Shown here: piece after piece, positions 34,229-60,941 of the stretch
How the letters are laid out: each line of letters begins with the position of its first letter
Numbering within the stretch: the stretch's first letter is position 1
IMG/VR virus record: IMGVR_UViG_3300024269_000002
DNA from: a virus
Lineage: Duplodnaviria > Heunggongvirae > Uroviricota > Caudoviricetes
Length of the DNA: 64,000 bases
Reading direction: 5' to 3' (one strand)
Translations under genes and position numbers: made by a program
The notes under the pieces: model-generated
What the model was told of the DNA's origin: nothing
The model's input: the letters and a program-made list of their open reading frames with translations, nothing else
Database searches by the model: none

Positions 34229-35653
34229 ATGTCACAACAAACATTTAACGCGGCGATGCGATATGGTGGACTACGTAATGGAGCTTCATACGAGTCTTGG
34301 CCTACCAATGCCGTGGCTTATCAAGGATGTTACAATGGTCTACACTACCCTAACGTTGAAGAGGCAGGCTACATAGGTGGAACTCGTTACGGTATCATTC
34401 AATTTGATGGCATAAGTGAACTGTGTAGTACAAAAAAGATTACTGCTCTTGAAATGACGATTGATTTTCCTACAGCTGGTAACAACACTAAGAAAACAAT
34501 CAAATTCTGGAAGTCAAATTATACTTCAGTTGATACAAGTAAAAATCCAAGTTCCTACATTGGTGCATCACTGGGTGACTATGCAACAACTGTTGTTGCA
34601 TACAACAAGTCAGAAACTATAACTCTGAACGAGACAACAAACTCAGAGTTATTCAACTCTTTTGTTAACTACTTTTCTACATCTGGTAATGATCTAATTT
34701 GTATCTATAATGGTGAAGATACCGACGATCTTATTGGAAAAGGTAATGAATCTACTAGTACACAGTGTTACAGCCCAAACTATCTTCAGTTCAAAACATG
34801 CACACTAAAAGTTACTTACAAAGAAAAGTATACAGTAACTTACGTTGCTAATGGAGGCTCAGGAGCTCCTGCAGCACAAGCAAAGATAGAGGGTGAAGAT
34901 TTAACTCTAAGCTCAACTGTTCCAACTTACACTGGAAGAACTTTTAAGGGCTGGGGAACTTCAGCAACTGATACAACTGTAGATTATGCAGCTGGCGGAA
35001 CATATAGTACGGATGGAAACATCACACTGTATGCAATCTGGGAACTCAATGAATACACAATCTCCTACAATCGTAACGGATATACAGTTGCTTCAGGATT
35101 TCCTAGTCCCTCCACGCAAACCAAAACTTACGGAACAGCATTAACTCTATCCTCTAGCAAACCTGTTTTAGACCCCACACAATTGACTGCGTATACAGTC
35201 ACATTGAACGCGAATGGGGGAACTTGTACATCAAGTAGTTTAACAGCAGCTCGAACAAAAACAAATACATTTACGAGCTGGAATACAAAAGCTGATGGCA
35301 CTGGAGTAAACTACAATGTAGGAGCATCCTACACAGCAGAATCCAATGCAACACTATATATAAAAGCAGATAGCTCAACTGTTACAAACAACGTTGACCT
35401 ACCTACTGCAACAAAAACAGGTTACAAGTTTTTAGGCTGGGCAACTAGCCCTACAGCAATCGGTGGAACAACAGGAAGTTACACACCTACAGGAAATGTA
35501 ACGTTGTACGCAATCTGGGAAGCTCAGGGTCTTGTTTATATTGACAATGGAACAACTCTTGAACCTTATTCTATCTGGATCGACAACGGCACAAGCTGGG
35601 ACCAGTACATGGCATACGTGGATAACGGCACAAGTTGGGATCCTTGTGGTTAA
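34229..35653 (+). CDS. surface/receptor-binding-like protein with Listeria-Bacteroides repeats
   Basis: Three repeats of the form F.GW.T...DTTVDY..GGTY...GNITLYAIWE (Flg_new / InlB-B-type repeat). Confidence 0.65.
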   Translation: MSQQTFNAAMRYGGLRNGASYESWPTNAVAYQGCYNGLHYPNVEEAGYIGGTRYGIIQFDGISELCSTKKITALEMTIDFPTAGNNTKKTIKFWKSNYTSVDTSKNPSSYIGASLGDYATTVVAYNKSETITLNETTNSELFNSFVNYFSTSGNDLICIYNGEDTDDLIGKGNESTSTQCYSPNYLQFKTCTLKVTYKEKYTVTYVANGGSGAPAAQAKIEGEDLTLSSTVPTYTGRTFKGWGTSATDTTVDYAAGGTYSTDGNITLYAIWELNEYTISYNRNGYTVASGFPSPSTQTKTYGTALTLSSSKPVLDPTQLTAYTVTLNANGGTCTSSSLTAARTKTNTFTSWNTKADGTGVNYNVGASYTAESNATLYIKADSSTVTNNVDLPTATKTGYKFLGWATSPTAIGGTTGSYTPTGNVTLYAIWEAQGLVYIDNGTTLEPYSIWIDNGTSWDQYMAYVDNGTSWDPCG

Positions 35654-40937: not shown

Positions 40938-41238
40938 GGAAGAAACAATTCAGCAGCTTGCATGTGGGATATGCTCAGTTACAGCTAACCGAGGTGAGTG
41001 TACTGGCTGCTCTTTTGCAAAAAACAGCTCTTGTGAACATTTTAGAGCAGCTGAAATCTTGTACGCAAGAGGATTTCGTAAAACTGAAGAGTCTGTTACA
41101 GGAGAGTGGATCCGATGCAATGGACCAACATATTCGTACTTTCGATGTTCAATCTGCAATGATTGGCAGATGACACAGTTGCCTCGGTGTATGAAATGTA
41201 TGACAAAGATGCGAAATATAACGGAGTTTGAACTATGA
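40921..41238 (+). CDS. zinc-ribbon protein
   Basis: CGIC...CTGC...C..C...CSIC...C.KC. Confidence 0.45.
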   Translation: MVQLTKEETIQQLACGICSVTANRGECTGCSFAKNSSCEHFRAAEILYARGFRKTEESVTGEWIRCNGPTYSYFRCSICNDWQMTQLPRCMKCMTKMRNITEFEL

Positions 41239-41852
41239 TCAAGATAAGCACACGACTTGAAAAGATCAGCAAGTTCCTTGCACTTATTCTGAGACATAAG
41301 CCCGATGCAGCTGGCATAACGCTTGATAAACATGGGTGGGCGGATGTCAACGAACTCGTTCGAGGAATTCGAAGCACAAAAGATCCGACATTCACACACG
41401 ACGATTTGACACTCATTGTTGTCACTGACTCAAAAGGAAGATACTCCTTTGATGAGTCTGGAAAACGGATAAGAGCGAATCAAGGGCATTCAGTTGAAGT
41501 TGATGTTGAGTTAGAAGAGATTGAACCTCCGACATTATTGTATCATGGAACAGCCACAAAGTACATTGACTCCATTGAAGCTGAAGGCATCGTCTCAAAA
41601 TCTAGACTGTATGTACATCTTTCGGAAACAGTTAGTACTGCAACTGAAGTTGGTAAACGGCACGGCAAGCCTGTAGTTTACACAATCCACGCAAAAAAGA
41701 TGTTTGATCATGGTTACAAGTTCTATAAGTCTGTCAATGGTGTGTGGCTAACAGAAACAGTACCTACTGAATATTTTGGATACAAAATCTTTGATTGGAC
41801 AGGTGTTGAGGAAACAGATGAGATATACAACAAAAATCAGACTTCCAGTTGA
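41235..41852 (+). CDS. kptA: RNA 2'-phosphotransferase Tpt1/KptA
   Basis: SKFLALILRHKP...GWADV; KGRYSF...RIRANQGHS; LYHGT; VHLS; NGVWLTETVP. These are canonical Tpt1 motifs. Confidence 0.85.
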   Translation: MIKISTRLEKISKFLALILRHKPDAAGITLDKHGWADVNELVRGIRSTKDPTFTHDDLTLIVVTDSKGRYSFDESGKRIRANQGHSVEVDVELEEIEPPTLLYHGTATKYIDSIEAEGIVSKSRLYVHLSETVSTATEVGKRHGKPVVYTIHAKKMFDHGYKFYKSVNGVWLTETVPTEYFGYKIFDWTGVEETDEIYNKNQTSS

Positions 41853-43875: not shown

Positions 43876-43967
43876 AATACAATCCCCCGAAAAACAATGG
43901 CTTGTATTACAACCGTTTGTATTTCTAGGGCAATATATTATATAATGATAAACTAAATAATATAAAT

Positions 43968-43996
43968 ATAATGTTATTATTACATAATAACATTAT
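43968..43996 (+). promoter_or_regulatory. perfect palindrome, 13-bp arms plus 3-nt spacer (ATAATGTTATTAT-tac-ATAATAACATTAT): operator or origin-like site
   Basis: Verified reverse-complement symmetry; sits in an AT-rich tract upstream of the 44031 and 44230 genes. Confidence 0.5.
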
Positions 43997-44030
43997 AGAG
44001 AGGGATGAACCCTCTCGAGGAGATAACTGA

Positions 44031-44252
44031 ATGTTTGATAAAATTGTTGAATCAATGTTACAGTTTAGTAATACATTCTGGATGTTGCTCTGTGTTCTTA
44101 TCTTTGCAATGACAGGTTCTTTTGAGGGTATGCTGATCAGTGGCGTGTTTGCTGTTGTAGTACTCATCATGGAGCTATTCAGTTGCATTCAGAGAGCAAA
44201 GAAAAATAAACGACGTAAGGAACGGACTCATGGAAATCAGAAAGTTACATGA
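44031..44252 (+). CDS. small membrane protein with basic tail
   Basis: GAGGAG RBS; two TM helices; KKNKRRKER tail. Confidence 0.5.
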   Translation: MFDKIVESMLQFSNTFWMLLCVLIFAMTGSFEGMLISGVFAVVVLIMELFSCIQRAKKNKRRKERTHGNQKVT

Positions 44253-47200
44253 ATCAGATGAGCTTCAAGATAGAGCTAAGAAACACAAGAAAAACAACAA
44301 AGGACTCAGTTTTTACTGTACTCTAAATCCGGATGCAGGAAATGTTGAGCATAATGTTGCAATGTTTAATCATATGAATACTCCAGCCGAAAGTCCTTCT
44401 GTTAATCCTTGTGGTCCGATGGCTGAAGCTATGAATACAGATGAGGTTTCACATCTATTCAAGTTGCATGTTGGAGATATTGTTGAATATGAAGGTCAAG
44501 AGTTTACTGTTGACGCTATACGCAATGATCCTGATCATACAGAGCTTGTTCCTTCGATGCTGAAACTTGGAGATGACTGGGTTCCTGAAGAATGGGTTGC
44601 CCTGAATTTTGATCATAAACTAAGAGAGGATAATAGTAAGATGGATTCACAGATTGAATTGAATTACACCGATCTTGAAGTGACCATTGTTACAAGACCT
44701 CGCAGACCTTCCAGTTATCATTTTGAGTATGATCGAGATGAAGCACAGACAGTTGAAGAGACGATTGATTACGAGTTTGCTGTTCCGAGATCTGATATTG
44801 TGGATTTCATCTATGAAAACATGACTGAAAATGATTTTGCAGATATCGATACTGCAACTGAGGCTGAGGTACTTGAATTCATTAACAAGAATTTTGACAC
44901 ATTGTTTGCCAAATATGAGTCAATGATTTTGGACGCTTATAGAGATCGAGCAAGAGAAGACGCAGAGGAACATATGAACGAATCATTAACAAATAAAGAG
45001 CTCGGTGAAGCTACTTGTGGCGTAGAGAAGTTTGTTTCATCACTCGGAAAAGATCTACATGAAGCTTTTTTGAGTAAGTTGATTGATAGTAATACTTCTG
45101 AAGAGCTTCTCAGATTAGAAGCTCTGTATGAGAAGTATGCTCGAGCACACGATGATATGCATACACAGAAGATTGTTGAAAAGGTTAGATCTGCAATTGC
45201 TTCATGCGCAGAAAATACTCAACCCTTAGCTGAGTCGGTGAATGAATACGTTATCATGGCAGTATGTAGCGATGGTAAAAAACAGTATTACAATGTTTCT
45301 TCAGCACCACACTGGGTAGCTAAAGCCAAGGATGCAACAATCTTTGATGACATGGACGAGGCAAGAGCTGTCTGGTTCAAGTTGGATAAGAAATCTTTCA
45401 AGAGAGTATTCATTCCTAACTACGATCATGAAAAAATGAACGAGGCTGTTGACATTGACAAACAGTATCAGCTTGACCTTCTGCTTGACCGCATCGAAGA
45501 AGTTATGGACTGGAAACTCAACAAGAAGTGTAAGACAAGAACTCTTGGCAATAATACTTATCGTGTTGTTCATACTTCTGGAAACACTTCAATGATTGTT
45601 AGATTTGATGTTTCCGACCCTGTCAAGCCACTCACTTTCATGATTGATAAGAAAGGTCCATTCACTGCAAAGAATGAGTCAGAAGCGGCTAATATCATCT
45701 TACGTGAGCTTCAGAACAAACACTCTGACTCATTTGATATGTTTAAGAATGAGGGTTTGAGTGATAGAATTCGTAAGAACGACTTGAACTATGATGATGA
45801 GCTTGATGCTTATCTTGCATCTGAGGGTGATACAGAAGTGCAGTTCCAAGATCGTGAAACTCATACACATGAATTCCGCACAAAGAAAAATCAGTGGGGA
45901 AGAAGTTATGTTGATGGGCAGTACAATACACAACCCAAAGTAGCTTCTCATACTTGGGGTCGTGTTTGGAAAGATGGTAAACTTGTAAAACAGTCTGAAG
46001 GTCCAAAGTATCAAGTAAGAGCTGATATTGCAAAATATCTTGATTCTGAAGGTAACTTGGATGAGTCTAAAATCCCTGACAACTGGACTAAGTATCGTGG
46101 AGCTTGGATGTATCCAGTTTATGGTGGATGGGAAGCAAATCTTGATGGCTTACATTATGAAGCTGAAACTGAAGATGAATTGAAGTTAAAGATTGATTCT
46201 GCAGTTCGTGATGGGTATACAAAGGATAACAAACTAGCACCGTTGTATCGAGATACACTACCAGCTTATGGTGGTATGCTCGATGAGGCTTGGAGTCCCG
46301 ATTACATTGATTGCCCTGTTTGTGGCGATATTTCATTTGACGCAAAGAGGGGCAGATGCACTCAGTGTGCATATCGTGAATCTGTTGAGGACGATACTGA
46401 CGATTTAGAGCATCCTGATCAAGAGTTTGATTCTGCAAAGACCTCTATAAATTCTACTAAGTTACCTGCGGTTTACAGAATGGTTAAGATTCCTCAAGGA
46501 ACTACTGGTGTTGACTTCGGTGGTGGATCTTTTGATAATGCAGTAGAGCACATCCGTGATCTTGGAGCAACTCTATGCGTCTATGATCCTTATAATCGTT
46601 CCGCAGAGCATAATCGAGAAGTTATCAAGACATTGAAAGGTAACGGCGGTGCTGACTGGGCTATCAACTCAAATGTTTTGAACGTTATCAAGGAACCTGA
46701 AGCTCGTAAAGCTGTTTTACAGAATATTTCAAAGATTACAAAATCTGGCGCTCCTGTTTACATTACTGTCTACGAGGGTCGTGGAGATGGTAAAGAAGGA
46801 GCTACTAAGTCAGGTTATCAGTTGAATCGTAGAACTCAAGATTACCTTGCTGAAATTCAAGAAGTATTTCCTGATGCAGTACGTAAGGGTAAGTTGATTA
46901 TTGCTCATAACGGCAGAGGACATGTTAACGAAAGTAACAATGCCTATAGTTACAAAGATTACACAATCATCGATGCTGGTTCTGGTTGGAAAGTTAAGGA
47001 TGCTTCTCAGAAGTGGGTTGGCAACGAATTTGCAACCGATAGAGACGCAGAGGAGTTTGTTGACTCTCTGAATGAGTCCTTTTTGGACAGCGATGATAAC
47101 TACGAGTATGTAGCTAGTAAGTCAGTACTTGATTCAGATGGTTTCTATACTGATTACACTTGGTACAAGAACATTGATGGTGTGAATGTATTCGTGTTTG

Positions 47201-49119
47201 GTGACAATGATATCTACAAGCCTGCTGATGGTTACATTGATCATGAAGAGGAAGATGATACCGCTGCTCAGGAATGGTTTGATTCTTACAACGGATTTGA
47301 AGAAGATATTGTTGACGAGAACTTAGATACAAGCAATGATGTCTTCTGTGTCGATGACCAGTTGGAATGGACTGACTTGTCTGGTGTGAAGTTCCGAGCA
47401 CTTGTAACTGATGTCAATGATGATGTTGTAGTTCTCGATATGATGCCCGTAAGCGGAGCTCCTGTTACCAGAACTTTTGAGCTAACTTGTGACTCTAATG
47501 GCAAGGAATGTATCATTGTTGATATGGCCTCCGATAAGAGTGATGCTGTTTATGTTTATCCTCCATATGAAGATCTTGAAGAGAGCACTGCTTCAAACAA
47601 AGTAGTATATCCTAACGGTGAACCTGTTACAGATATTGATCTGAATCGTGCACTTGATTATATGTACGGTACTGATAGAAATCCTGAGTGGACATACACT
47701 GATGCAGAGATGCAGCGGGCAATTTACTACTGGATGGATAAGACTGATCCACATCCATCAGGAAAGTCTTACATGAGCTTACAAGAATCCTACAACATCA
47801 AGTTCTATCAAATTTTCCAAGCCCCATCTAAGCCTACAGAAAATGGTAAGATGATTGGCCAGAGAGATACTCTGAGTGCTGCCATTGACTTCGGAGAGGA
47901 TCGTTGTGGTCCTGGAAAGTTCTTTATCAAGGGTGTTTGCGATGATGGCAAAACTAGATACGTAGATTTCTTTAGAAAAGCAAGGGGTTATGTTCCTTTT
48001 GCCAACTACAAAGATGACGTAACAGAATCTTTTGAAGATGATGGACCAGTTTATGTTGCATCTTCAGTTGAGAGTCTGAACAACTACTGTGCTGGTTTAG
48101 GTGACGCTTGTAAAAGATTACGTGATGGAAACATGTGTTCTTATCGTGGTTATGAAGTAGAATTTGTCGATGGTGAGTACAATGTGTTCTTGCTGGAATC
48201 AATGAACGAATCCTTTGATGACTATCATTATGCAGTTTACAACAATGATGCTCTTTTGAGAGACAAGCTCTGGAGTGTCTCTGACGCACTTGAGTTCATT
48301 CATGCAAATGGTGGCAACATTATCAAACTTTCAAAAGATGGTGTTGATACTGTTATCTGGAAAGATGGTAAGGCAGTTGGAAGCGGATTTATCGGTAAGG
48401 GCATAGATGCTGATGGAAACGATGTTCACTTTGAAGATGGTGAAGATGTTCCAACTCATGCAGCTCCAGAACCTTTCAATCCTAGAAAGTGGTTGTACGG
48501 TGAGTCAAAAGAAAACCGACCTCTGTACATTATCAGAGACAGTCACGGAAATCAACTATCTGCTCCTAATCCTGACGACGAAGAGCTGTGGGATAGAGTT
48601 GCTTCTATGGAAGCAAGAGGAAGACGTGGACTGTGTGTAGTTGCTTATACCGGCAAGAAAGAATCACTGAAAGAGTGGAATGAATTCAGTGATGACGATG
48701 TTGAAGATGATTTGACTCATGCAGCTGTTTACGGCGGCGATAGCAAGTACTGCAAAGAATGCGGTGCTGTAAAGAAATATGATGAGGACGGCTTTTCATA
48801 TTGTCCTGAGTGCTGTGGTGAACTTGACGAGTCCTACTGGTACAATGATCCTGAACTTCGTCAGAAACAAGATCAGCTAATTTCTGAATTAGAAGCTGAT
48901 GGATTTGAAGAAACAGATGGTCAATCATATGGCACTAAGCATTGGACATTCTTCCGCAAGAGAGTTGATGGTAAGGGAGTCTGGAAAGCAATCTTTGTTG
49001 ATACTGGATCAAAAGAAGCTGCAATAATTGATGTAACTTATGGTCAAGTTCGTGGTTATGAGCCACTTGATAGTTTCGATGCTCTAAGAAGAGATCTTGG
49101 AAACAAGTTATTGCCATAA
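44230..49119 (+). CDS. giant protein (1629 aa) with central Rossmann/SAM-methyltransferase-like segment and zinc ribbons
   Basis: Uninterrupted 4.9-kb ORF; VDFGGGSFDNAVEH...CVYDPY resembles MTase motifs I and II; CPVCG...CTQC and CKECG...CPECCG ribbons. Confidence 0.6.
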   Translation: MEIRKLHESDELQDRAKKHKKNNKGLSFYCTLNPDAGNVEHNVAMFNHMNTPAESPSVNPCGPMAEAMNTDEVSHLFKLHVGDIVEYEGQEFTVDAIRNDPDHTELVPSMLKLGDDWVPEEWVALNFDHKLREDNSKMDSQIELNYTDLEVTIVTRPRRPSSYHFEYDRDEAQTVEETIDYEFAVPRSDIVDFIYENMTENDFADIDTATEAEVLEFINKNFDTLFAKYESMILDAYRDRAREDAEEHMNESLTNKELGEATCGVEKFVSSLGKDLHEAFLSKLIDSNTSEELLRLEALYEKYARAHDDMHTQKIVEKVRSAIASCAENTQPLAESVNEYVIMAVCSDGKKQYYNVSSAPHWVAKAKDATIFDDMDEARAVWFKLDKKSFKRVFIPNYDHEKMNEAVDIDKQYQLDLLLDRIEEVMDWKLNKKCKTRTLGNNTYRVVHTSGNTSMIVRFDVSDPVKPLTFMIDKKGPFTAKNESEAANIILRELQNKHSDSFDMFKNEGLSDRIRKNDLNYDDELDAYLASEGDTEVQFQDRETHTHEFRTKKNQWGRSYVDGQYNTQPKVASHTWGRVWKDGKLVKQSEGPKYQVRADIAKYLDSEGNLDESKIPDNWTKYRGAWMYPVYGGWEANLDGLHYEAETEDELKLKIDSAVRDGYTKDNKLAPLYRDTLPAYGGMLDEAWSPDYIDCPVCGDISFDAKRGRCTQCAYRESVEDDTDDLEHPDQEFDSAKTSINSTKLPAVYRMVKIPQGTTGVDFGGGSFDNAVEHIRDLGATLCVYDPYNRSAEHNREVIKTLKGNGGADWAINSNVLNVIKEPEARKAVLQNISKITKSGAPVYITVYEGRGDGKEGATKSGYQLNRRTQDYLAEIQEVFPDAVRKGKLIIAHNGRGHVNESNNAYSYKDYTIIDAGSGWKVKDASQKWVGNEFATDRDAEEFVDSLNESFLDSDDNYEYVASKSVLDSDGFYTDYTWYKNIDGVNVFVFGDNDIYKPADGYIDHEEEDDTAAQEWFDSYNGFEEDIVDENLDTSNDVFCVDDQLEWTDLSGVKFRALVTDVNDDVVVLDMMPVSGAPVTRTFELTCDSNGKECIIVDMASDKSDAVYVYPPYEDLEESTASNKVVYPNGEPVTDIDLNRALDYMYGTDRNPEWTYTDAEMQRAIYYWMDKTDPHPSGKSYMSLQESYNIKFYQIFQAPSKPTENGKMIGQRDTLSAAIDFGEDRCGPGKFFIKGVCDDGKTRYVDFFRKARGYVPFANYKDDVTESFEDDGPVYVASSVESLNNYCAGLGDACKRLRDGNMCSYRGYEVEFVDGEYNVFLLESMNESFDDYHYAVYNNDALLRDKLWSVSDALEFIHANGGNIIKLSKDGVDTVIWKDGKAVGSGFIGKGIDADGNDVHFEDGEDVPTHAAPEPFNPRKWLYGESKENRPLYIIRDSHGNQLSAPNPDDEELWDRVASMEARGRRGLCVVAYTGKKESLKEWNEFSDDDVEDDLTHAAVYGGDSKYCKECGAVKKYDEDGFSYCPECCGELDESYWYNDPELRQKQDQLISELEADGFEETDGQSYGTKHWTFFRKRVDGKGVWKAIFVDTGSKEAAIIDVTYGQVRGYEPLDSFDALRRDLGNKLLP

Positions 49120-49214: not shown

Positions 49215-52037
49215 ATGGCATTTACTGCAAGTAAACTACTAGAAATTGCTATTGCCGAGCTTGGCTACAAAGAAAAAGCTTCTAACTTTCAGCTCGATGA
49301 TAAAGAAGCCAATGCTGGTAGTGGCAACTGGACGAAATATGCTCGTGATCTTCACACCGCAGGATATTATCAAGCAGCTAAGAACGGTTATGCATGGTGT
49401 GACATGTTTGTTGACTGGTGCTTCTTACAGCTTGGTGGCAGCAAAGAAAAAGGCGAATGGCTCGAATGCCAAACAGGACTTTATGGTGCAGGATGCGAAT
49501 GGTCATCTAACTGTTATCGTTGGGCAGATCGTTGCGGAACTGAGCCGAAAGTCGGTGCACAAATCTTCTTTGCTAAAAACGGTAAAGGATCTGAAGAGCA
49601 TACAGGTATTGTAGAAAAGTTTGACAGTAACTATGTTTACACAATTGAGGGTAACGCAAGTAACATGGTAAAGCGTAAAACATACGCTCGTAATTCTGAT
49701 TACATCCTGTGTTATGGATATCCAAGATTTGATGAGACTACAAATGAGACGCAAGCAACAACTTCAACAATTGCTGCTGATCATTTTGACAAAGGGGATG
49801 TCGTTAAGATTGTTTCTGGCGCTAACTGGTTAAGTGGATCTGCTGTTCCTACATGGGTGATCAAGAAGGAATGGATTATTAAAGAAGTTTCTACTTCTGA
49901 TGGTAGAGTTGTTGTCAATGAATCAGTTGATGGAGCAAACAAGATCAATAGTCCTATTCACTATTCTTCTCTAGTTCTTGTTAAGGCTGCTAATCCGAAA
50001 GAGGATAAAGTTGAAACAGAGCTGGACGGAGGAAACAAGGAAACTGAGGTTGCTCAAAGTAGTTTGAAGTATTCTACTGCAAATCCGCCGCTTGTTTGTA
50101 TGCAGACTCAGAGCACTTGTTATAAGGGCACAACCGAAATGACTGTTCTTGGTGTGCTGTGGCATAGTACAGGTGCAAACAACAAGACTATCAAGCGCTA
50201 TGTTCAGCCTAGTGACAATGATCCAAACAAAGATGCTCTGCTTAAGTTAATCGGTAAGAATCAGTATAACAATGACTGGAACCATATTGACAGACAAGCT
50301 GGTTTGAATGCTTGGATTGGTACATTAGCTGATGGCACAGTTACGACCGTTCAGACAATGCCCTGGAACTTTAGACCTTGGGGCTGTGGAAGTGGTAAGA
50401 ATGGTTCTTGTAACAGTGGCTGGATTCAGTTTGAGATCTGTGAGGATAACTTACAAGACGCTGACTATTTCAACAAGGCATACACAGAAGCTTGCGAGCT
50501 AACTGCGTATCTTTGTAAGATGTTTAATCTTGATCCTCATGGAACCATTAACTATAATGGAGTTAAAGTTCCCGTTATCCTTTGTCATGCAGATTCTTAT
50601 GATCTTGGTTTCGGATCAAATCATGGTGACATTGATCACTGGTTCCCGAAGCATGGTAAGTCAATGGTAACAGTAAGAAATGATGTTGCAAAGTTACTCC
50701 AGAATTCAACACAAGCTGCTCCAGTAGAAGGTGTATACCAGAAGGGTGTTGCAACTCAGCTTTCTAAGAATTTCAAATCAACTGAATTTGATTGTCATGG
50801 AGATGGCTGTTGCACTACAACAGAAGTAGATCCAAAACTTGTTACTTATTTACAAACAATTCGTGATCATTTTGGCAAGGCTGTTAATATTAGCAGCGGA
50901 TATAGATGTGCAACACACAACAAGAGTGTTGGAGGAGCTGTTGGTTCAAGACATACAAAAGGTCAAGCAGCTGATATCTATATTAACGGTGTAACTCCTT
51001 TGGAGATTGCTCGTTACGCAGAACAACTTGGCATCTTAGGAATTGGTTTATATGAAACTGATGAAGATGGTCATTTTGTACATGTTGACACAAGAGCGAC
51101 AAAGTCATTCTGGTATGGACAAGCACAAGCTAAGAGAGATACATTCCAAGAGCCTGTTAAAATTGATATATCAAAAGTTAACACAGCAAAAGCTGATCCG
51201 AAGCATGTTTGGGACTTCTTGAAAGCAAAAGCATTGAATGATTTTGCAGTGGCTGGTTTGATGGGCAATTTGCTTGCTGAGTCAAACATGTTACCAATCA
51301 ACTTGCAAAACACTTATGAGAAGAAGCTCGGTATGACAGACGCTGAGTATACAGCAGCAGTTGACCAGGGAATCTACAAAGATTTCGTCAAAGATAGCGC
51401 AGGCTATGGTCTAGCTCAGTGGACATACTACAGCCGTAAGGAAGACTTGTTGGAGTATGCTACTTCTCAGAAGAAATCAATCGGTGATTTAGATATGCAG
51501 CTGGAATTCTTGTGGACTGAGCTTCAAAGATACAAGGCTGTTATGAAGCAGTTGAATGAAGCAACTTCAGTTAGGGAAGCTTCTGATGTAATTCTTCATG
51601 ACTATGAAGCTCCTGCTGATCAAAGCGAGGCTGTTGAAATCAAGCGTGCTGAATTTGGACAGAAGTATTTTGATGACTATGCCGTATGTATGCACAAGTC
51701 AACAGAAATTCAGAACCAGAAAGATGCAACTTGTACAGAAGCTGGATATACAGGTGATAAGGTATGCTCTGAATGTAACTTTGTAGTAGAAGTGGGGTCA
51801 CTTATTCCTCCTATTCAGCACAACTATAGCTTGACAGGAAAGCTTGAGCCTACAATTGAAACAGAAGGCTACACTGGAGATCAAGTTTGTTCAAGATGCA
51901 ATCATACAATCAAGGGAGAAGCAATCAAGAAGTTGAGTCCGATTGTTGTTACTCCTGAAGATGATGAGGTTAAGATTACTATCAAGAAGAGCTGGATCCA
52001 GAAGTTGATTGAGTGGTTGCTCAGCTTGTTAAAATAA
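49215..52037 (+). CDS. polyvalent peptidoglycan hydrolase (CHAP + amidase_2-like + M15 peptidase + tail-lysozyme domain + Cys-rich repeats)
   Basis: CHAP: AWCDMFVDWC...EEHTGIV...TIEGN. Amidase_2-like: VLGVLWHSTGANN...GWIQFEICED. M15: SGYRCATHNKSVGGAVGSRHTKGQAADI...DGHFVHVD. Lysozyme: AGLMGNLLAESN...GYGLAQWTY. Confidence 0.75.
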   Translation: MAFTASKLLEIAIAELGYKEKASNFQLDDKEANAGSGNWTKYARDLHTAGYYQAAKNGYAWCDMFVDWCFLQLGGSKEKGEWLECQTGLYGAGCEWSSNCYRWADRCGTEPKVGAQIFFAKNGKGSEEHTGIVEKFDSNYVYTIEGNASNMVKRKTYARNSDYILCYGYPRFDETTNETQATTSTIAADHFDKGDVVKIVSGANWLSGSAVPTWVIKKEWIIKEVSTSDGRVVVNESVDGANKINSPIHYSSLVLVKAANPKEDKVETELDGGNKETEVAQSSLKYSTANPPLVCMQTQSTCYKGTTEMTVLGVLWHSTGANNKTIKRYVQPSDNDPNKDALLKLIGKNQYNNDWNHIDRQAGLNAWIGTLADGTVTTVQTMPWNFRPWGCGSGKNGSCNSGWIQFEICEDNLQDADYFNKAYTEACELTAYLCKMFNLDPHGTINYNGVKVPVILCHADSYDLGFGSNHGDIDHWFPKHGKSMVTVRNDVAKLLQNSTQAAPVEGVYQKGVATQLSKNFKSTEFDCHGDGCCTTTEVDPKLVTYLQTIRDHFGKAVNISSGYRCATHNKSVGGAVGSRHTKGQAADIYINGVTPLEIARYAEQLGILGIGLYETDEDGHFVHVDTRATKSFWYGQAQAKRDTFQEPVKIDISKVNTAKADPKHVWDFLKAKALNDFAVAGLMGNLLAESNMLPINLQNTYEKKLGMTDAEYTAAVDQGIYKDFVKDSAGYGLAQWTYYSRKEDLLEYATSQKKSIGDLDMQLEFLWTELQRYKAVMKQLNEATSVREASDVILHDYEAPADQSEAVEIKRAEFGQKYFDDYAVCMHKSTEIQNQKDATCTEAGYTGDKVCSECNFVVEVGSLIPPIQHNYSLTGKLEPTIETEGYTGDQVCSRCNHTIKGEAIKKLSPIVVTPEDDEVKITIKKSWIQKLIEWLLSLLK

Positions 52038-52057
52038 CGGTTATTTCACATACAAAG

Positions 52058-52095
52058 AATGAGGTGCTATTCGCGTAGCACCTCATTTCTTGTAT
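52058..52095 (+). terminator. terminator-like hairpin
   Basis: aatgaggtgcta/tagcacctcatt 12-bp stem followed by TCTTGTAT. Confidence 0.5.
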
Positions 52096-52137
52096 ATAAA
52101 GTATATAGATCAAACTTTGAGGAAGGATGTTGATAGT

Positions 52138-54648
52138 ATGGCGTTACGTTTGAATGTTGTTGCCATCGCTGATGGTGGTGGTAAGCCTGCCTCTCAGACC
52201 GAAGTTGTTCATTCCTATACAGTTGATGCTCTGCTTGCAATTGCTCTAGCAGAGAAGGGCTACAAAGAGAAGAGTAGTAATTCAAGTTTAGATAGTAAGA
52301 CAGCTAACGCAGGAAGTAACAACTACACAAAGTATGCAAGAGATCTTCATAATGCTGGTTATTACCAAGCAAGCAAGCAAGGATTTGCTTGGTGTGATAT
52401 GTTCGTTGATTGGTGTTTCTATAAGCTTGTTTGTAATGTAACAGGTAAGACTGGAAAAGATGCTCGGTTGATAGCTAACGAGTTGATCTGCGTGAATGAA
52501 AATCAACTATATGGAGCAGGATGTGCTGAGTCTCGTGGTTACTACAAGGAAAAAGGACGTTTAGGAAATCTACCAGTAAAGGGCGCTCAAATATTTTTCT
52601 GGGAAGCCGGTGAAGTTTCTCACACAGGTATTGTTACAGGATTTGATGCTAATCAAGTTTATACCATTGAGGGTAATACAAATAATCAAGTTAATGAGCG
52701 AGCATACAAGCGGAATGATAGCAGTATTGTTGGCTATGGCTATCCGAAGTTAACAGGACTGAAAGTACCAACCGGATCTACTGTTCCTCCTGACCCTCCA
52801 AGCTCTTATGGCGAGGATACCAGTACTGAAAATACAGACAGTTATAACGGTGGTAACAGTGTCGGCGGAAGCGGCTCAGTCATCTCCTATACATTTGATG
52901 GGCTGAAATATTCAGATGATAACCCACCCTTGTACTGCCCGCAAACTCAAAGCACTTGTTGGAGAGGCACCAGTAAGAATATGACTATTCGCGGAGTGTT
53001 GTGGCACGATACTGGTGCTGGAAACCCTGAGATTCGTAGATATGTTCAACCCGATGACAATGCCAATGATCGAGAGTACTGGATAAACCTACTTGGTAAG
53101 AATCAGTATAACAATGACTGGAATCATGCTGAACGACAAGCAGGAATGAATTGCTGGATAGGTAAACTAGCGGATGGATCTGTTACAACTGTTCAGACAA
53201 TGCCTTGGAATTATAAACCTTGGGGTTGTGGCGGCGCATGTAATGACGGCTGGATTCAGTTTGAAATCTGTGATGATGTTGACCACGGCGATGATCCCGA
53301 CTACTTCCATGCTGCTTATGAAGAAGCTTGCCAGATAACGGCATACTTGTGTGCAAAGTTTAATCTAGACCCTCTTGGAACTGTGGAGTTCAAAGGAAAA
53401 CAAGTTCCTGTTATACTTGATCATCGAACTTCTTGTAAACTTGGACTCGGAAGTAACCACGGTGATGTTAGAGGTTGGTTCAAGAAATATGGTAAATATG
53501 CTGACGAAGATGGCATGCAGATTGTTCGTCAAGATGTTGCAGCACTTTTAAGTAAGGGCGGTAACTATATTCCAAATGTTAGGATTGACGATATTGTTAC
53601 TGTTGATCCCGGAGCAACAGCAAAAGATGGTTCAGTTGCTGCGCCATGGATTACATCTAAGCGTTGGAAAGTTTCTAATACATCCTCAGAGGATGAGTAT
53701 GCGATTCTTGGCCAGCGCGAGGATACCGCATCTGTTGTACTGAATAGGGCTTACAAGAAATCAAATCTGACTGTAGTTACTGCTAATGGATCTGTAACTC
53801 CTTCTCCTAACACAGGCAACTTAACTAACAAAGAAAGAATTTGGAACATTCTTTCTAGCAAAGTTAAGGATAGTAATGGACAAACAAACTATTTCGGAGT
53901 TGCTGGAATCATGGGTAACATGATGGCAGAGTCTGGTCTTAGACCAAACAATCTTCAGAATACATATGAAAAAAGTTTAGGTTACAGTGATGAAAGTTAC
54001 ACTGCTGCTGTTGATAACGGAACATATACAAACTTTGTACGAGACAGCGCAGGTTATGGACTAGTTCAGTGGACATACTGGTCTTTGAAGGAAGAACTAC
54101 TTAAATACGCTCAAGAACATAACAAATCCATTGGTGATCTAGATATGCAAGTAACATTCTTGTGTCATCAGTTGTCAACGGGATATACATCTGTTTGGAA
54201 TACTTGTTGTAACGCTAAAACTGTTAAAGAAGCCTCTGATAAGATGCTACATGGTTTCGAACGACCTTACGGACATGATGGCGTCAACAAAGAGTCACAA
54301 GAAAGTAAGAGAGCTCAGTTTGGTACTGATATTTACAACGAGCTAGTCAACGGTTGTTCTCATTCGGAAACAGTAACACGAGATAATTGCGCTGCAACTT
54401 GTTCCTCTGATGGATACACAGGTGATGAGGTTTGTTCTTCCTGTGGCTTAACTGTTAGATTCGGTGACATTATTCCTGCAACTGGTCATAACTATCAGTA
54501 TGGTGTATGTACTATTTGTGGGGCAACTCCAGAGCAAGATAATGGTGGAGGAGGATCTGTTCCAAACATCACAAATGGTATTGTTACTCGAGATGATTTG
54601 ATTCAGATTCTTTCTGTTTTGAAAGATATGCTAAGTAGAGAAAGTTGA
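52138..54648 (+). CDS. polyvalent peptidoglycan hydrolase paralog (CHAP + amidase_2-like + tail-lysozyme domain + Cys-rich repeat)
   Basis: Same domain order as 49215 minus the M15 domain; FAWCDMFVDWC, VLWHDTGAGN...GWIQFEICDD, AGIMGNMMAESG...GYGLVQWTY; GAGGAAGGA RBS before the ATG at 52138. Confidence 0.7.
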   Translation: MALRLNVVAIADGGGKPASQTEVVHSYTVDALLAIALAEKGYKEKSSNSSLDSKTANAGSNNYTKYARDLHNAGYYQASKQGFAWCDMFVDWCFYKLVCNVTGKTGKDARLIANELICVNENQLYGAGCAESRGYYKEKGRLGNLPVKGAQIFFWEAGEVSHTGIVTGFDANQVYTIEGNTNNQVNERAYKRNDSSIVGYGYPKLTGLKVPTGSTVPPDPPSSYGEDTSTENTDSYNGGNSVGGSGSVISYTFDGLKYSDDNPPLYCPQTQSTCWRGTSKNMTIRGVLWHDTGAGNPEIRRYVQPDDNANDREYWINLLGKNQYNNDWNHAERQAGMNCWIGKLADGSVTTVQTMPWNYKPWGCGGACNDGWIQFEICDDVDHGDDPDYFHAAYEEACQITAYLCAKFNLDPLGTVEFKGKQVPVILDHRTSCKLGLGSNHGDVRGWFKKYGKYADEDGMQIVRQDVAALLSKGGNYIPNVRIDDIVTVDPGATAKDGSVAAPWITSKRWKVSNTSSEDEYAILGQREDTASVVLNRAYKKSNLTVVTANGSVTPSPNTGNLTNKERIWNILSSKVKDSNGQTNYFGVAGIMGNMMAESGLRPNNLQNTYEKSLGYSDESYTAAVDNGTYTNFVRDSAGYGLVQWTYWSLKEELLKYAQEHNKSIGDLDMQVTFLCHQLSTGYTSVWNTCCNAKTVKEASDKMLHGFERPYGHDGVNKESQESKRAQFGTDIYNELVNGCSHSETVTRDNCAATCSSDGYTGDEVCSSCGLTVRFGDIIPATGHNYQYGVCTICGATPEQDNGGGGSVPNITNGIVTRDDLIQILSVLKDMLSRES

Positions 54649-56594
54649 GTGATTGGATGGCTGAAGAAAGATTTGTATACCAAGTAGGAGATCTAATTCA
54701 GATCGATCCTACAGCAACACGCATTGATGGATCCTCAATTGATGCTGACTTGAAGGGAAATAACTACAACTGGTTTGTTACGGATGTTGATCCTACAAAC
54801 TTTACTTTGACTCTCGGAGCATACAGAGCATTTGGATTGAGATATAGATGGAATCCTCCGATTGTAATTCATGAGGATTTTGTGTCTAAGATAGTTAAAC
54901 TTGTTTGTAGACACGCAAACGCAGTTGTTGACTCAAAAGTTGAACCTACTTGCTTGGAAGATGGTCTAACTGAAGGCAGGCACTGTCCTGACTGTGGTGA
55001 AGTTCTTCTAGCACAGCATAAGATTCCTAAACTGGAACACGAATATGTGTACGATATGGATCAAGGTGTTAAAACTTGTACAAAGTGTAAACATCAGATA
55101 TTTGACTCAGAACGATCCATTGATCTTACAGGAGACGACATCAGAAAGATGATTCAGATAATTGAGGCTATGCTTTCATATGATTCATCTTCACCAGTTC
55201 CCCCTGAAGTTATTCCTGAGGTAGATCCTCCTGTGGAGCCAGTATTTAGTTCCGATATTACATTTACAAGCGAGTGGAAAACAGATCTGGATCTTCCTTA
55301 CTTGTTTTATACTCCTTCAAGTGCAACAACCGACGGAACAACTCCGCTCATTGTTTGGCTACACGGTTCAGATGAGTGCGGTGCAAGCGAGAGCATATTC
55401 CGCGACAGAGGCTTGCCTGCTGTTTTGAAAAGCTGGTCATTGAAAGGTTTCAACGCATACATACTTTGCCCCAGACTTCCTGGAGGTATCAAATGGACTC
55501 AACGATCCGATTCTGTTTTCAGTATGATTTCTAACATTGTTAGTAAGTACAAAGTTGATACACGAAAGATCATACTTATGGGCCACTCTCTTGGTGGTAT
55601 TGGAACTGAGTACATTGCGTTCCAGAAACCTGGTTATTTCTCGTGTCAGATTATAATGAGCGGTTACAGTTCTGGAGTAGATCTATCTCAGTTAAAAGAT
55701 CTACCAACAAGGGTGTATGCTGAAAATTCAGAGTATTCAGCTCATTACAACACACTGAAAAATACATTTGGGCAGGAGGCTTGTACGGTTCTCAACTGTG
55801 GTCATGGTGAAGTTCCTGGTAAGGCATTAACTATTGAAAAGTCAGACGCTGCCGGTGTATCTGATCTTCTGTACTGGGCAATCTCTCAAACAAATGAACA
55901 ACTTGATGATACAGAGAGTGAGCCTAAATTACAAGTTCCCTTTACAACTGTTGTTACAGCTGATGGTGTAAATCTTAGAACTGGACCTGGAACAGAGTAT
56001 GACGTTGCGGATAGCAATAACAAGGCTTATGCTGGACAACAGCTGACTATAGTTGAAATTGTACAATCCGGTAATCATAATTGGGGTAAGCTAGATCCGA
56101 ATATCTGGAAAACCTCAAAGACAAGTAGTTGTATCGGAAAATCTGATCGCTGGATAGCACTAGAGTACACAACTGCTTTTAACTCGGAAACATTTAAGAC
56201 TCCTACATGGATATATCCATTATCATATCAAAGGCTATCAAGCCCTTATGGTTATAGAATACATCCTATCAGTGGAGAATGGAAAATGCACTGGGGTGTA
56301 GATCTTGGAGCATACTGGGGAACTCCGATATATGCAACAAAAGCAGGAACTGTTTCAACAGTGGCTTATCAAGAGGATGGGGCCGGAAATTATATCTGTA
56401 TAAAACATGAAGATGGAACTCAGTCTGATTATTTCCATCTTGAAGAGCAACTTGTTTCTGTTGGTGACAAAGTTGAAGCCGGACAGCATATCGGTAGATG
56501 TGGCAGCACTGGCGGATCAACAGGCCCTCATTTGCATTTCCAGATATGGGAGAACGGCTCTAGACAAGATCCGGCAGAGTACATTGATTTCTAA
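54645..56594 (+). CDS. alpha/beta-hydrolase (esterase) plus M23 peptidase fusion with N-terminal Cys-rich module
   Basis: GHSLGG nucleophile elbow. M23: HWGVDLGA...GNYICIKHEDG...GPHLHFQI. Start could be the ATG at 54657. Confidence 0.75.
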   Translation: MSDWMAEERFVYQVGDLIQIDPTATRIDGSSIDADLKGNNYNWFVTDVDPTNFTLTLGAYRAFGLRYRWNPPIVIHEDFVSKIVKLVCRHANAVVDSKVEPTCLEDGLTEGRHCPDCGEVLLAQHKIPKLEHEYVYDMDQGVKTCTKCKHQIFDSERSIDLTGDDIRKMIQIIEAMLSYDSSSPVPPEVIPEVDPPVEPVFSSDITFTSEWKTDLDLPYLFYTPSSATTDGTTPLIVWLHGSDECGASESIFRDRGLPAVLKSWSLKGFNAYILCPRLPGGIKWTQRSDSVFSMISNIVSKYKVDTRKIILMGHSLGGIGTEYIAFQKPGYFSCQIIMSGYSSGVDLSQLKDLPTRVYAENSEYSAHYNTLKNTFGQEACTVLNCGHGEVPGKALTIEKSDAAGVSDLLYWAISQTNEQLDDTESEPKLQVPFTTVVTADGVNLRTGPGTEYDVADSNNKAYAGQQLTIVEIVQSGNHNWGKLDPNIWKTSKTSSCIGKSDRWIALEYTTAFNSETFKTPTWIYPLSYQRLSSPYGYRIHPISGEWKMHWGVDLGAYWGTPIYATKAGTVSTVAYQEDGAGNYICIKHEDGTQSDYFHLEEQLVSVGDKVEAGQHIGRCGSTGGSTGPHLHFQIWENGSRQDPAEYIDF

Positions 56595-59414: not shown

Positions 59415-59915
59415 ATGAAGTTCAGTAAGTTGTTTCTTGATGAATCCTTGTTTGATAGTACATCAATGAAGTACGATGATGATTTCAGTGAGGCTGAACT
59501 TCCTCCTGAGAGTTTGCAGGGACCGACCTCTGGGTCCGATTCTGGTGTAACAGATTTAGTCATAACTGCAATAAACGACGAGTGGGAAGCAATTCGGACT
59601 TATAATTCTATCATCGAGACTTTGAAGTATGAAGCTCCTAACAATGAAGATTATGTAAGATTTATTCAGATTCTGAATGATATCAATGCAGAAGAAAACA
59701 AACATGTGGGACAGCTTCAAGAAATTCTACAGAGATTATCACCAAACGCGAAATTCATCGACAAAGGACGTGATGAAGGAAGATCACAGTTTAATTTTGC
59801 GAACGGTTTGTTACAAGTTCAGGCCTGGGAGCCGAAACAAACAACTGCCACAGTAACTCCAGATGTTTCTGGTGAAGATGTGTGCACATTAACTGACATT
59901 GATGACGATATGTGA
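59415..59915 (+). CDS. acidic protein (166 aa)
   Basis: ORF in track; D/E-rich. Confidence 0.5.
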   Translation: MKFSKLFLDESLFDSTSMKYDDDFSEAELPPESLQGPTSGSDSGVTDLVITAINDEWEAIRTYNSIIETLKYEAPNNEDYVRFIQILNDINAEENKHVGQLQEILQRLSPNAKFIDKGRDEGRSQFNFANGLLQVQAWEPKQTTATVTPDVSGEDVCTLTDIDDDM

Positions 59916-59927
59916 GGATTGATACAT

Positions 59928-60941
59928 ATGGCAAAACGTAGATTAAAAAATGAATCAATTGATAATCTGCAGAGAGTTGTAGACGCAGAAGCTCCTGCAG
60001 TAGTTGGACAGATGGATGTTGTCATGGCAGACGCTGTTCAGGAGAGCGCTAAGAATGACGAACATGCAGAGGAAGTTGCTACTCAGCTGCAGAAGACTGC
60101 TGATGTAGTTATTCCTGAAGATCCGAAAGAGGAGAAACCTGCTGTTGATAACAAGTTTACAGCAAAGTTAGTTCTGGATGAATCTCTGGAAGATTTCTCC
60201 CTTGTAACAGAGGATGCTACTCCTAAGGATGGTAGAGCAAGAAAAGTTTATGACGATGACGACGAAGATGAATATCTGGATTACGATATGTTTGACTTCG
60301 TCTATGGTCTTGTAACAGACTGCTGGCCTAAGCCCTTGAACCCTCTTGGACACAAGATGCGTAAGTTCATGTACATTGGTTCTGATAAGTACATGGATTC
60401 TCCTGATGCGGACACTCGTGATTCTTCTGATGGTCATGCTCAGGTTGCAAGCTATGGCGACTCCATTGAAGTTTATTCCAACAATCCTGCAGACTTCAAA
60501 GACATTGAGGATGTCTGTAAGCTGTATAAGCTGAGCTACTCTGGTCCTCACCGCAGACGCAGCAAGAGTACTTACTGGGAGTATTCATTCCGTGTAAATG
60601 TTCCTTGTGTGAGCAGTGGTTATCCTTACATGGTTGAGGAGTACTTCGAGACTCTTGGAATGACTATGGAAGATGTGATGCCTGCTGATTTCTGCAAACA
60701 GTATCGCAAGAGACAAGCAACAGTTGAGAAAGAAGCAAAGAAGTATATCAATCAGGCTGAAGTTGATAAGCTGATCGATAAAGCAATCACTGCTGCAGCT
60801 CAGGACAACACTGAGCCCTTGGAAGCACATCTTAAGAGACTTTATGTAGATTTAGATGCCGCTGGTTTAACTTACCAGAAATCCAAAGTTAAGAAAACCT
60901 TCATGGACGCTTTTGATGATCCTGAGGAAGACGACGAATAA
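59928..60941 (+). CDS. highly acidic protein (about 337 aa) with DDDDEDEYLDYDMFDF segment
   Basis: GAGGA RBS 9 nt upstream of the ATG at 59928. Confidence 0.55.
   Translation: MAKRRLKNESIDNLQRVVDAEAPAVVGQMDVVMADAVQESAKNDEHAEEVATQLQKTADVVIPEDPKEEKPAVDNKFTAKLVLDESLEDFSLVTEDATPKDGRARKVYDDDDEDEYLDYDMFDFVYGLVTDCWPKPLNPLGHKMRKFMYIGSDKYMDSPDADTRDSSDGHAQVASYGDSIEVYSNNPADFKDIEDVCKLYKLSYSGPHRRRSKSTYWEYSFRVNVPCVSSGYPYMVEEYFETLGMTMEDVMPADFCKQYRKRQATVEKEAKKYINQAEVDKLIDKAITAAAQDNTEPLEAHLKRLYVDLDAAGLTYQKSKVKKTFMDAFDDPEEDDE

Follow-up and report, generated by a model that had tools for sequence, protein, structure and literature searches.

What kind of protein does a tailed phage encode in a single open reading frame (ORF) of 4.9 kb? 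The ORF in question lies in a stretch of 64,000 nucleotides (nt) from the IMG/VR record IMGVR_UViG_3300024269_000002 (Caudoviricetes), hereafter the window, which corresponds to positions 7-64006 of a 222,986-bp metagenomic contig (JGI 3300024272 Ga0257077_10000181); the source is an uncultured phage of ∼223-254 kb. The first-pass annotation had placed the ORF exactly, and had singled out acidic low-complexity stretches, two CxxC...CxxC ribbons and a methyltransferase (MTase)-like segment. The main feature of the giant protein, which that annotation missed, is that it is a beads-on-a-string mosaic with a repeated junction motif. The mosaic has a leader and a protease-like junction code, and this architecture is widespread and new (our literature search on phage capsid polyproteins found no description of it). 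Our preferred reading, to which we assign a probability of roughly 45%, is that the giant gene encodes a cargo polyprotein that is targeted to the capsid and processed by a protease, cleavage and packaging both being steps that we infer.

44230..49119, + strand: giant ORF, ATG start, 1629 amino acids (aa), 185 kDa, pI 4.6; a mosaic of ∼20 modules

Identical copies of the giant protein are on record in 14 contigs, the longest of 254 kb, which rules out an assembly artefact. Overall, the protein is acidic (D+E = 19.3%; it also has 25 cysteines), and in this respect the first-pass annotation was right; its low-complexity stretches come down to a single case of at least nine D/E per 15-residue window, from aa 720. 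Composition analysis finds no membrane-type hydrophobic stretch. The annotation had also seen no homology to known giant phage proteins, and this stands: among 50,697 phage records there is no DNA-level similarity to the gene, a tblastn search of the same records with the protein gives one match (134 aa, in an unannotated 485-kb uncultured phage), and a PHROG search returns no informative family (two families of 'unknown function' match, in the MTase region).

The mosaic became visible in a whole-protein search, which yielded 23 strongly mosaic homologues. Insertions and deletions among them start and stop at a recurrent Φ-x-E|S sequence (Φ is hydrophobic; the bar marks the junction). There are 18 occurrences of [LIVM]xE[SA] in the giant protein against 3.4±1.8 expected, a number reached by none of 2000 composition shuffles, and no comparable excess is observed in 20 other proteins of the window (maximum five, 1.3 expected). 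At 14 of the 18 sites, a homology breakpoint (an edge of ungapped homology to the 23 homologues) is no more than 3 aa away; conversely, a motif site is found within 4 aa of 13 out of 43 breakpoint clusters, compared with 4.1±1.9 for random positions. Cutting at the motif sites gives ∼20 fragments (3.5-20 kDa, mostly acidic), each of which is a presence/absence unit found in a differing subset of the homologues; the modules have no paralogues elsewhere in the 64-kb window.

The junction logo of the giant protein is compact: P3 is L (eight), M (four), V (three), Y (two) or K (two), P2 is mostly N or D, P1 is E, and P1' is S (15), A (three), G (one) or N (one). Codons differ between the sites (GAA or GAG for Glu, and six Ser codons), so the constraint acts on the peptide and not on the DNA; a DNA recombination signal was considered and rejected on the same ground. 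The junctions also tend to fall in linkers. In an AlphaFold2 (AF2) model of aa 1-1200, which has a mean predicted local distance difference test score (pLDDT) of 69.8 with 24.8% of residues below 50 and which consists of small alpha/beta modules, 14 junctions are testable: nine are inside segments with pLDDT<50 (p=0.002) and 12 are within 4 aa of such a segment (p=2e-4), the exceptions being E251 and E901. A Foldseek search of this model against PDB matched MTases only, as the searches are dominated by the MTase domain.

The same motif closes a short peptide at the very N-terminus, where it is followed by a conserved leader.

44230..44253, + strand: N-terminal octapeptide MEIRKLHE, conserved in the family, similar to a capsid-targeting sequence (CTS) and ending at the first Φ-x-E|S site
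44254..44427, + strand: conserved leader of 58 aa (aa 9-66), ELxxRAKKHKKxxKGL..LNPDAGNVEHNVAMFN...GPMAE|A
44635..44982, + strand: module M02 (aa 136-251), which together with the leader is the family-defining core
48832..49116, + strand: C-terminal module (aa 1535-1629, …RGYEPLDSFDALRRDLGNKLLP), a recurrent C-terminus of the family

The N-terminus of the family reads M-x-x-x-[KR]-[LI]-x-E-[SAND], and thus a short N-terminal peptide closing in hydrophobic-x-Glu (MEIRKLHE|S), the CTS-type format, is conserved. In T4, the CTS is formed by the first 10 residues of internal proteins, among which positions 4 and 7 are important for targeting, positions 8 and 10 for processing (PMC9026906); T4 ejected proteins have such N-terminal peptides of 10-20 aa (PMC7411985). 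The leader, whose own end (GPMAE|A) is again the junction motif, is found in 22 of the 23 family members, M02 in 21 and the C-terminal module in 10 (and in four carriers outside the family). M02 is modelled by AF2 as a long beta-hairpin with helices (pLDDT >90 for aa 171-250). No Pfam or PHROG family matches the leader, and its consensus has no match in deposited phage records. A profile search with the leader and M02 collected 124 proteins, mostly of 110-535 aa, including stand-alone forms of ∼230 aa and leaders joined to one or a few unrelated modules. The architecture is therefore best described as a short N-terminal peptide plus a conserved leader plus variable cargo, of which the 1629-aa protein is an extreme case.

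The genomic contexts of the short leader-protein genes (loci L004-L007) are uninformative. LRR_5 genes cluster around these genes in L004 and L005, and a TnpB/IS605-type gene lies directly downstream of the leader-protein gene in L006 and L007 (e.g. L006 11427-12503). One leader-bearing protein (P0285, with DUF3293) is labelled by NCBI as coming from a Methanobrevibacter metagenome-assembled genome (MAG). The one locus returned by a scan of GTDB species genomes belongs to a yak-rumen MAG of Acholeplasmatales, which is too little for naming a host.

Is the motif read by something in trans, or is it a structural element of the modules? The latter is the core of the rival that survives best, according to which the giant protein is an unprocessed polyvalent multi-domain protein (Iyer et al. 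2017), whose modules act tethered in the 185-kDa chain, packaged or not. ΦxES would then be a favoured linker or domain cap, i.e. a C-terminal hydrophobic residue and Glu followed by an N-capping Ser. Such a cap should travel with its module, and we therefore looked at junction sequences across lineages. Among 205 full-length proteins, we compared the body (residues 16 onward) with the N-terminus (first 13 aa). 38 proteins have bodies enriched in ΦxE[SAG], and 27 of these have an N-terminal ΦxE site while one has a ΦxS[SA] site; among the 24 with bodies enriched in ΦxS[SA] the corresponding numbers are one and 10 (Fisher p = 1.6e-7 for ΦxE and 1.5e-4 for ΦxS[SA]). Starts of the ES type, which come from three or more unrelated N-terminal families, are for example MEIRKLHE|S, MSKINIRE|S, MAKLNLRE|S and MNFTNLNE|S; examples of SS-type starts are MKRYIKSS and MKISKRSKITSS.

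A second comparison used a single orthologous junction, the one after the MTase module, with the type of each protein judged from its remainder. Out of 21 ES-type proteins, 16 have ΦxE[SAG] and five have ΦxS[SA] at this junction; out of 21 SS-type proteins, none has ΦxE[SAG] and 18 have ΦxS[SA] (Fisher p = 2.4e-7 for ΦxE and 1.3e-4 for ΦxS[SA]). The direction is clear: judged from these sequences, the junction appears to go with the protein or phage lineage and not with the module. This points to a lineage-specific factor, for instance a protease, that reads the motif in trans; a structural cap intrinsic to the module would not lead to such a pattern. Many MTase-module carriers (P0024-P0172, e.g. 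P0062, P0113 and P0142) use the second dialect, joining modules by Φ-x-S-[SA], and their N-termini are of the MKRYIKSS- or MKISKRS..SS-type. If Φ-x-S|S sequences are cleavage sites, a protease that cuts between two serines is implied, unlike the known prohead proteases, which cut after Glu.

The cap explanation thus fails to predict that the post-MTase junction takes the ΦxE[SA] or the ΦxS[SA] form depending on the remainder of the protein, or that the same motif ends a short N-terminal peptide that no module precedes. The existence of modules as separate small genes in relatives (locus L008 and the short leader proteins) is a further point against this rival. In favour of an unprocessed polyvalent protein are the mosaic multi-domain architecture in a phage, the LPD11 domain in one MTase-module carrier, the two junctions predicted to be structured, the precedent of N4 virion RNA polymerase (vRNAP) and several plasmid polyvalent proteins, which are transferred uncleaved (PMC5512222), and the fact that cleavage is something we infer. 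On balance we consider this explanation possible and rather doubtful.

The modules themselves are mostly anonymous, except for two Zn-ribbons and the MTase. Both ribbons claimed by the first-pass annotation are present, and the MTase-like segment (VDFGGGSF...VYDPY) was recognized correctly.

46312..46368, + strand: Zn-ribbon 1, CxxC...CxxC (aa 695-713, CPVCGDISFDAKRGRCTQC), inside a 31-aa mini-module (aa 687-717)
46381..46932, + strand: class-I S-adenosylmethionine (SAM)-dependent MTase module (aa 718-901), flanked by YRE|S and VNE|S
48751..48813, + strand: Zn-ribbon 2, CxxC...CxxC (aa 1508-1528, CKECGAVKKYDEDGFSYCPEC), inside a module of aa 1479-1534

Pfam assigns aa 754-852 to Methyltransf_23 (PF13489) with an E-value of 1.1e-4 and 22.4 bits, which is below the 27-bit gathering cut-off; the same family is matched at E<=1e-3 by 24 out of 36 MTase-module carriers (best E 1.1e-7). 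The AF2 model of aa 718-905, built from an alignment of 39 sequences, has a pLDDT of 87.3 and a predicted template modelling score of 0.85. Its Foldseek comparison with PDB gives 247 matches at E<=1e-3, and every top match is a SAM-MTase (Trm9, RPA2492, glycine-sarcosine MTase (GSMT), cg3271, METTL6 and NNMT), with E 1.6e-6, TM 0.5-0.6 and 10-19% identity. By this modelling, the segment is a genuine class-I SAM-MTase fold, a seven-stranded Rossmann-like alpha/beta domain. A single-sequence phmmer search of the segment against PDB gave spurious matches only (e.g. a designed spike construct), and AF2 plus Foldseek were needed for this reason. Motif I (DFGGGSF) and the acidic residue at the end of strand 2 (VYDPY) are both present; the D, G, G and G of motif I and the Asp of VYDP are invariant across 36-39 homologues, and DxGGG, VYDPYNR, GGAD, SNVLNVIKE, YITVYEG and GYQLNRKT are invariant or nearly so. 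The invariance of these SAM-MTase motifs argues for an active enzyme. The nearest structures are small-molecule or tRNA MTases; a viral UniProt entry 72% identical to the module carries the automatic name 'NodS'.

The module is common: in a HMMER search with aa 725-905 as query, 1903 cluster representatives carry it, 325 at E<=1e-30, and the best 150 of the 1903 are 57-95% identical to it. It is found at any position within carrier proteins of 226-2468 aa. Pfam recognizes almost no other domain in 36 of these carriers, and LPD11, a polyvalent-protein domain, is found in one of the 36. The 2468-aa carrier combines the module with a PhageMin_Tail (tape-measure) domain, and tape-measure proteins are a class that exits the virion at infection. 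Within the giant-protein family, only three out of 23 members have the MTase, which makes it accessory cargo and not the essence of the protein.

The Trm9/METTL6/NodS/Methyltransf_23-type small MTases share with the module the Rossmann fold, the GxGxG-type motif I (DFGGGSF), VYDPY and the strand-4 sequence SNVLNVI; the module differs from them in its distinctive invariant N-terminal QEFxSxxTSINxxKLPA and GYQLNRKT hairpin, and in being always embedded in phage mosaic proteins.

How would such a protein be used? If the giant protein is a capsid cargo polyprotein, the N-terminal peptide and leader would direct the precursor into the prohead, as the 10-aa CTS does in T4, where Asp at position 10 stops processing and leaves targeting intact. 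T4 gp21 and the related proteases of giant phages cleave after Glu residues, and a prohead protease of this type would cleave the junctions. The freed modules would remain in the capsid and then enter the host alongside the DNA. There the MTase and the other modules would act on targets of the host, and counter-defence or take-over would be their most plausible role. We count in support of this interpretation the enrichment of the motif, its position at breakpoints, the modular inheritance, the location of junctions in linkers, the selection at the peptide level, the motif at N-termini, the lineage dialects and the MTase module inside a tape-measure protein. The genomic context is counted as well, i.e. 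synteny with three virion-lysin-like hydrolases, fibre-like genes downstream and a neighbour similar to encapsulated ferritins (EncFtn). The first-pass annotation had proposed a virion-packaged, ejected protein; this idea is plausible and has gained new, indirect support (CTS-like N-terminus, junction logos, tape-measure carrier, EncFtn-like neighbour), and the comparators named with it, DarB and N4 vRNAP, did not hold up.

The neighbouring genes, listed here, are relevant to where the protein would act.

49215..56594, + strand: three multi-domain peptidoglycan hydrolases (940, 852 and 649 aa), just after the giant gene
49215-52037, + strand: hydrolase 1, 940 aa, CHAP-like/Amidase_2/Peptidase_M15/Phage_lysozyme2
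52090-54648, + strand: hydrolase 2, 852 aa, CHAP/Amidase_2/Phage_lysozyme2
54645-56594, + strand: hydrolase 3, 649 aa, esterase-like/Peptidase_M23
59415..59915, + strand: EncFtn-like protein, 166 aa, N-terminal decapeptide MKFSKLFLDE|S
59928..60941, + strand: acidic protein, 337 aa, start MAKRRLKNE|S (as called in L003), with further ..QE|S and LDE|S sites

Encapsulated ferritins are obligate cargo of encapsulin shells, which have the HK97 fold. The EncFtn-like protein of the window belongs to a family with 96 metagenomic homologues, and its profile matches Pyrococcus furiosus EncFtn (5n5e, E 0.0018), an encapsulin (2e0z, E 0.016) and EncC (7s8t, E 0.19). The decapeptide of this family (consensus MKFKKLxLDE|S) is nearly invariant among 32 diverse homologues, Φ standing at position 8 and E at position 10; 20-60 hypervariable residues follow, and then a conserved core (INDEWEAIxxYN...EENKHVGQLQE) and a conserved C-terminus (CTLxDVDDEM). 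The geometry of the T4 CTS is thus exact in this neighbour, and the giant protein has an 8-aa version of it. Downstream of the hydrolases, the window and L003 encode acidic proteins of unknown function and then coiled-coil, fibre-like proteins. The motif is internal (PVAE|S, VLKE|S, VQE|S and LDE|S) or N-terminal in the acidic proteins at 57787-59085 and 59928-60941 (both +) and at 20803-21630 of a relative locus (L001). N-terminal forms are MAKRRLKNE|S and, in L001 and L002, MKVQKLSE|S; the L001 orthologue of the 337-aa protein starts MKARKVTNE|E. From their sequences, these acidic proteins may be additional substrates or cargo.

The giant protein of L001 and that of the window share 48% identity in the best BLASTP segment, which covers 22% of the query, and gene order is kept: Tpt1, HTH_36, a small ORF, the giant gene, hydrolases and DUF5662. 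The hydrolase set is present there in reduced form; such redundancy of wall-degrading activities is unusual for one phage. The region between the regulators and the giant gene is also similar in the two loci.

43967..43997 (arms 43967-43980 and 43984-43997), + strand: perfect 14-nt inverted repeat, operator-like, TATAATGTTATTAT-TAC-ATAATAACATTATA
43998..44016, + strand: G+C-rich hairpin GAGAGGG-ATGAA-CCCTCTC, directly before the ribosome-binding site (GAGGAG) of the 73-aa ORF
44031..44252, + strand: 73-aa hydrophobic membrane-type ORF, whose 3' end overlaps the start of the giant ORF by 23 nt

The palindromic, operator-like site that the first-pass annotation had placed before the giant ORF is real and perfect, and what it fronts is the 73-aa ORF: it lies 34 nt upstream of this ORF and 233 nt upstream of the giant one. 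It overlaps a -10-like TATAAT, and we take it to be part of the predicted promoter region of the small ORF. L001 has an equivalent inverted repeat, with altered spacing, upstream of the homologous gene pair, and a similar hairpin (GAGAGGTTCAAAAACCTCT); the small ORF is kept there too, and Pfam gives only weak noise for it. Translational coupling of the two ORFs is possible, and the giant gene is probably co-expressed with the overlapping membrane ORF from the promoter/operator at 43945-43997.

This arrangement bears on a second rival: an early cytoplasmic polyprotein, never packaged, that a non-capsid phage protease or a host protease would cut into ∼20 small proteins, a compact way of expressing a small acidic array for anti-defence or host takeover. 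The junction evidence is the same as for capsid cargo; the gene ends a block of nucleotide-metabolism and regulator genes (dCMP deaminase, HTH_36 and Tpt1) and has its own promoter/operator; and acidic modules may be in general character like inhibitors of the DNA-mimic type. Against it, the N-terminal peptide has the format of capsid-targeting sequences, the MTase module is found inside a tape-measure protein, the neighbours are virion-lysin-like and EncFtn-like, and a Pfam scan of 40 window proteins gives no candidate for a cytoplasmic Glu-specific protease. We regard this rival as improbable.

The size of the protein, its MTase fold and its position upstream of lysins and fibre-like genes could suggest an anti-restriction enzyme that modifies DNA, DarB-like or other, or else a structural protein of the tail (fibre or tape measure). 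Both are very unlikely, since the protein has no (D/N/S)PP(Y/F/W) motif at the strand-4 position and no helicase, RNA polymerase, coiled-coil, transmembrane or tape-measure domain, its MTase is absent from 20 out of 23 family members, and the structures nearest to this MTase are those of small-molecule or tRNA MTases. DarB of phage P1 is an N6-adenine DNA methylase with (D/N/S)PP(Y/F/W), coupled to a SWI2/SNF2 or DExH helicase. In the giant protein, Pfam finds no helicase or DNA-methylase family at E<=1, Foldseek gives no such match for aa 1-1200, and the strand-4 position of the MTase has SNVLNVIKE instead of the DNA-methylase motif; without motif and helicase, the protein is not DarB-like. 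Neither is it like N4 vRNAP, because no RNA polymerase is found by Pfam, PHROG or Foldseek (aa 1-1200; aa 1201-1629 by sequence only). An identity as a standard tail fibre or tape-measure protein finds no support in Pfam (no PhageMin_Tail/TMP family), in composition (no transmembrane-like stretch) or in the AF2 model, with its small alpha/beta modules.

Several observations weigh against the capsid cargo interpretation itself. No major capsid protein, portal, terminase or protease was found by Pfam and PHROG in the 74 kb examined (∼40 window proteins plus a 10-kb extension, L003). The precursor and most modules are acidic (pI 4-5), while T4 internal proteins are basic, and acidic cleavage products might leave the capsid instead. 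Junctions E251 and E901 are in regions that AF2 models as structured, the dialect counts ignore shared ancestry, and in two proteins (P0023 and P0280) the leader is internal, which misfits a strictly N-terminal signal. N-terminal MK.KK and other Lys-rich strings are also favoured for translation in AT-rich genomes.

Comparison with known systems shows what is shared and what is particular to the giant protein. Like T4 IPI-III and Alt, it has a short N-terminal peptide ending in hydrophobic-x-Glu, followed by variable, fast-evolving cargo. The T4 proteins, however, have one cleavage site and one cargo, and the internal proteins are basic, whereas the giant protein has ∼19 candidate sites and ∼20 acidic modules, and it has in addition a conserved 58-aa leader. 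The E or inner-body proteins of giant phages (SPN3US gp53/gp54 and phiKZ, with gp245/gp175-type proteases) are cut after Glu, at A/S/G-x-E with Ser preferred at P1', in the heads of jumbo phages and sometimes at several places, and their long N-terminal propeptides are thought to target the prohead. SPN3US gp245, for example, cleaves after A-x-E with a preference for Ser at P1', and some ejection-protein propeptides have several sites (PMC10052503). There is no sequence similarity to these proteins; P3 here is L/M/V and not A/S/G, and the phage context is of the Firmicutes type. Cuts in the giant protein would release folded modules, whereas the E proteins have a propeptide trimmed.

Polyvalent proteins are the closest published concept (Iyer, Burroughs, Anand, de Souza, Aravind 2017): very large mosaics of unrelated domains, predicted to be delivered together with DNA, with domain shuffling, some of which were proposed to be proteolytically processed (PMC5512222). 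Pfam finds none of their hallmark domains (MuF/MPTase, the DarB-type methylase-helicase dyad, ART, ParB-like and LPD) in the giant protein, and as to disparate activities, the ∼20 modules offer one that can be assigned (the MTase) plus the two Zn-ribbons. A regular junction motif, an N-terminal leader and lineage dialects are features of the giant protein only, outside the description of polyvalent proteins. Polyprotein processing is characteristic of RNA viruses and of retroviruses. Like their polyproteins, the giant protein has one ORF, potentially many products and a repeated, lineage-specific protease-like motif, with processing here being putative; theirs are essential proteins of small genomes, whereas the giant protein would be accessory, variable cargo of a 223-kb dsDNA phage.

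The remaining genes of the window help to place this phage. All substantial genes lie on the + strand, and along the whole window, which has a GC content of ∼40%, the GC skew stays positive. Among the encoded proteins are subunits of a type II topoisomerase, with their closest relatives in Bacillus SP-15, Listeria LIS04, Bacillus HSE3 and Streptococcus GXN1 phages (41-45% identity), and also dUTPase, 5'-nucleotidase, dCMP deaminase and Tpt1/KptA. On these grounds the element is classified, by sequence, as a jumbo phage of a Firmicutes-type host. The Tpt1/KptA RNA 2'-phosphotransferase gene (41235-41852, +; E 8.9e-46) adjoins the giant-gene locus in L001 too, and an RNA ligase and a KTI12-like kinase are encoded near the leader gene in L006, which suggests that RNA repair, or the countering of tRNA damage, may be a theme of these phages. 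A 327-aa ORF (27428-28411, +) has a Hint/pretoxin-HINT domain (PF07591, E 4.9e-7) and could be an intein remnant or an autoproteolytic module. Two SPFH/Band-7 (flotillin-like) proteins are encoded at 1892-3391 and 20736-21686 (both +); of these, the second carries a signal of the lipoprotein type (…LAGC) and is mildly enriched in ΦxE[SA] (five sites, 1.3 expected). BspA-type LRR_5 proteins (one of 2209 aa) and a Flg_new repeat protein, encoded at 17956-21353 of L003 and at 15070-16596 and 34229-35653 of the window, are candidate host-adhesion proteins.

What would it mean if the capsid cargo interpretation is right? We tentatively suggest, with somewhat less confidence than for the giant protein itself, that large uncultured phages of Firmicutes-type hosts in gut and rumen share a polyprotein strategy for capsid cargo, in which effector modules are shuffled behind a leader, cut by the head protease at a lineage-specific dialect and injected with the DNA. 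If the junctions are cleavage sites, tailed dsDNA phages would use polyprotein processing to load and release arsenals of small effectors. With the motif, giant phage proteins could be divided, by hundreds and from sequence, into their functional units (∼1900 protein clusters are marked by the MTase module alone), and the always-embedded MTase and the ∼20 modules would be nominated as injected candidates for host takeover or counter-defence; the tags and cleavable linkers would also be natural tools for packaging foreign proteins in capsids of Gram-positive phages. If the EncFtn-like protein is loaded by the same N-terminal tag, it would be a direct functional link between phage capsids and encapsulins, and these capsids would be functionally analogous to cargo-loaded encapsulins. 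And if the junctions are merely linkers, the mosaic phage proteins described here nevertheless form a new and well-defined family, whose leader domain is new as well.

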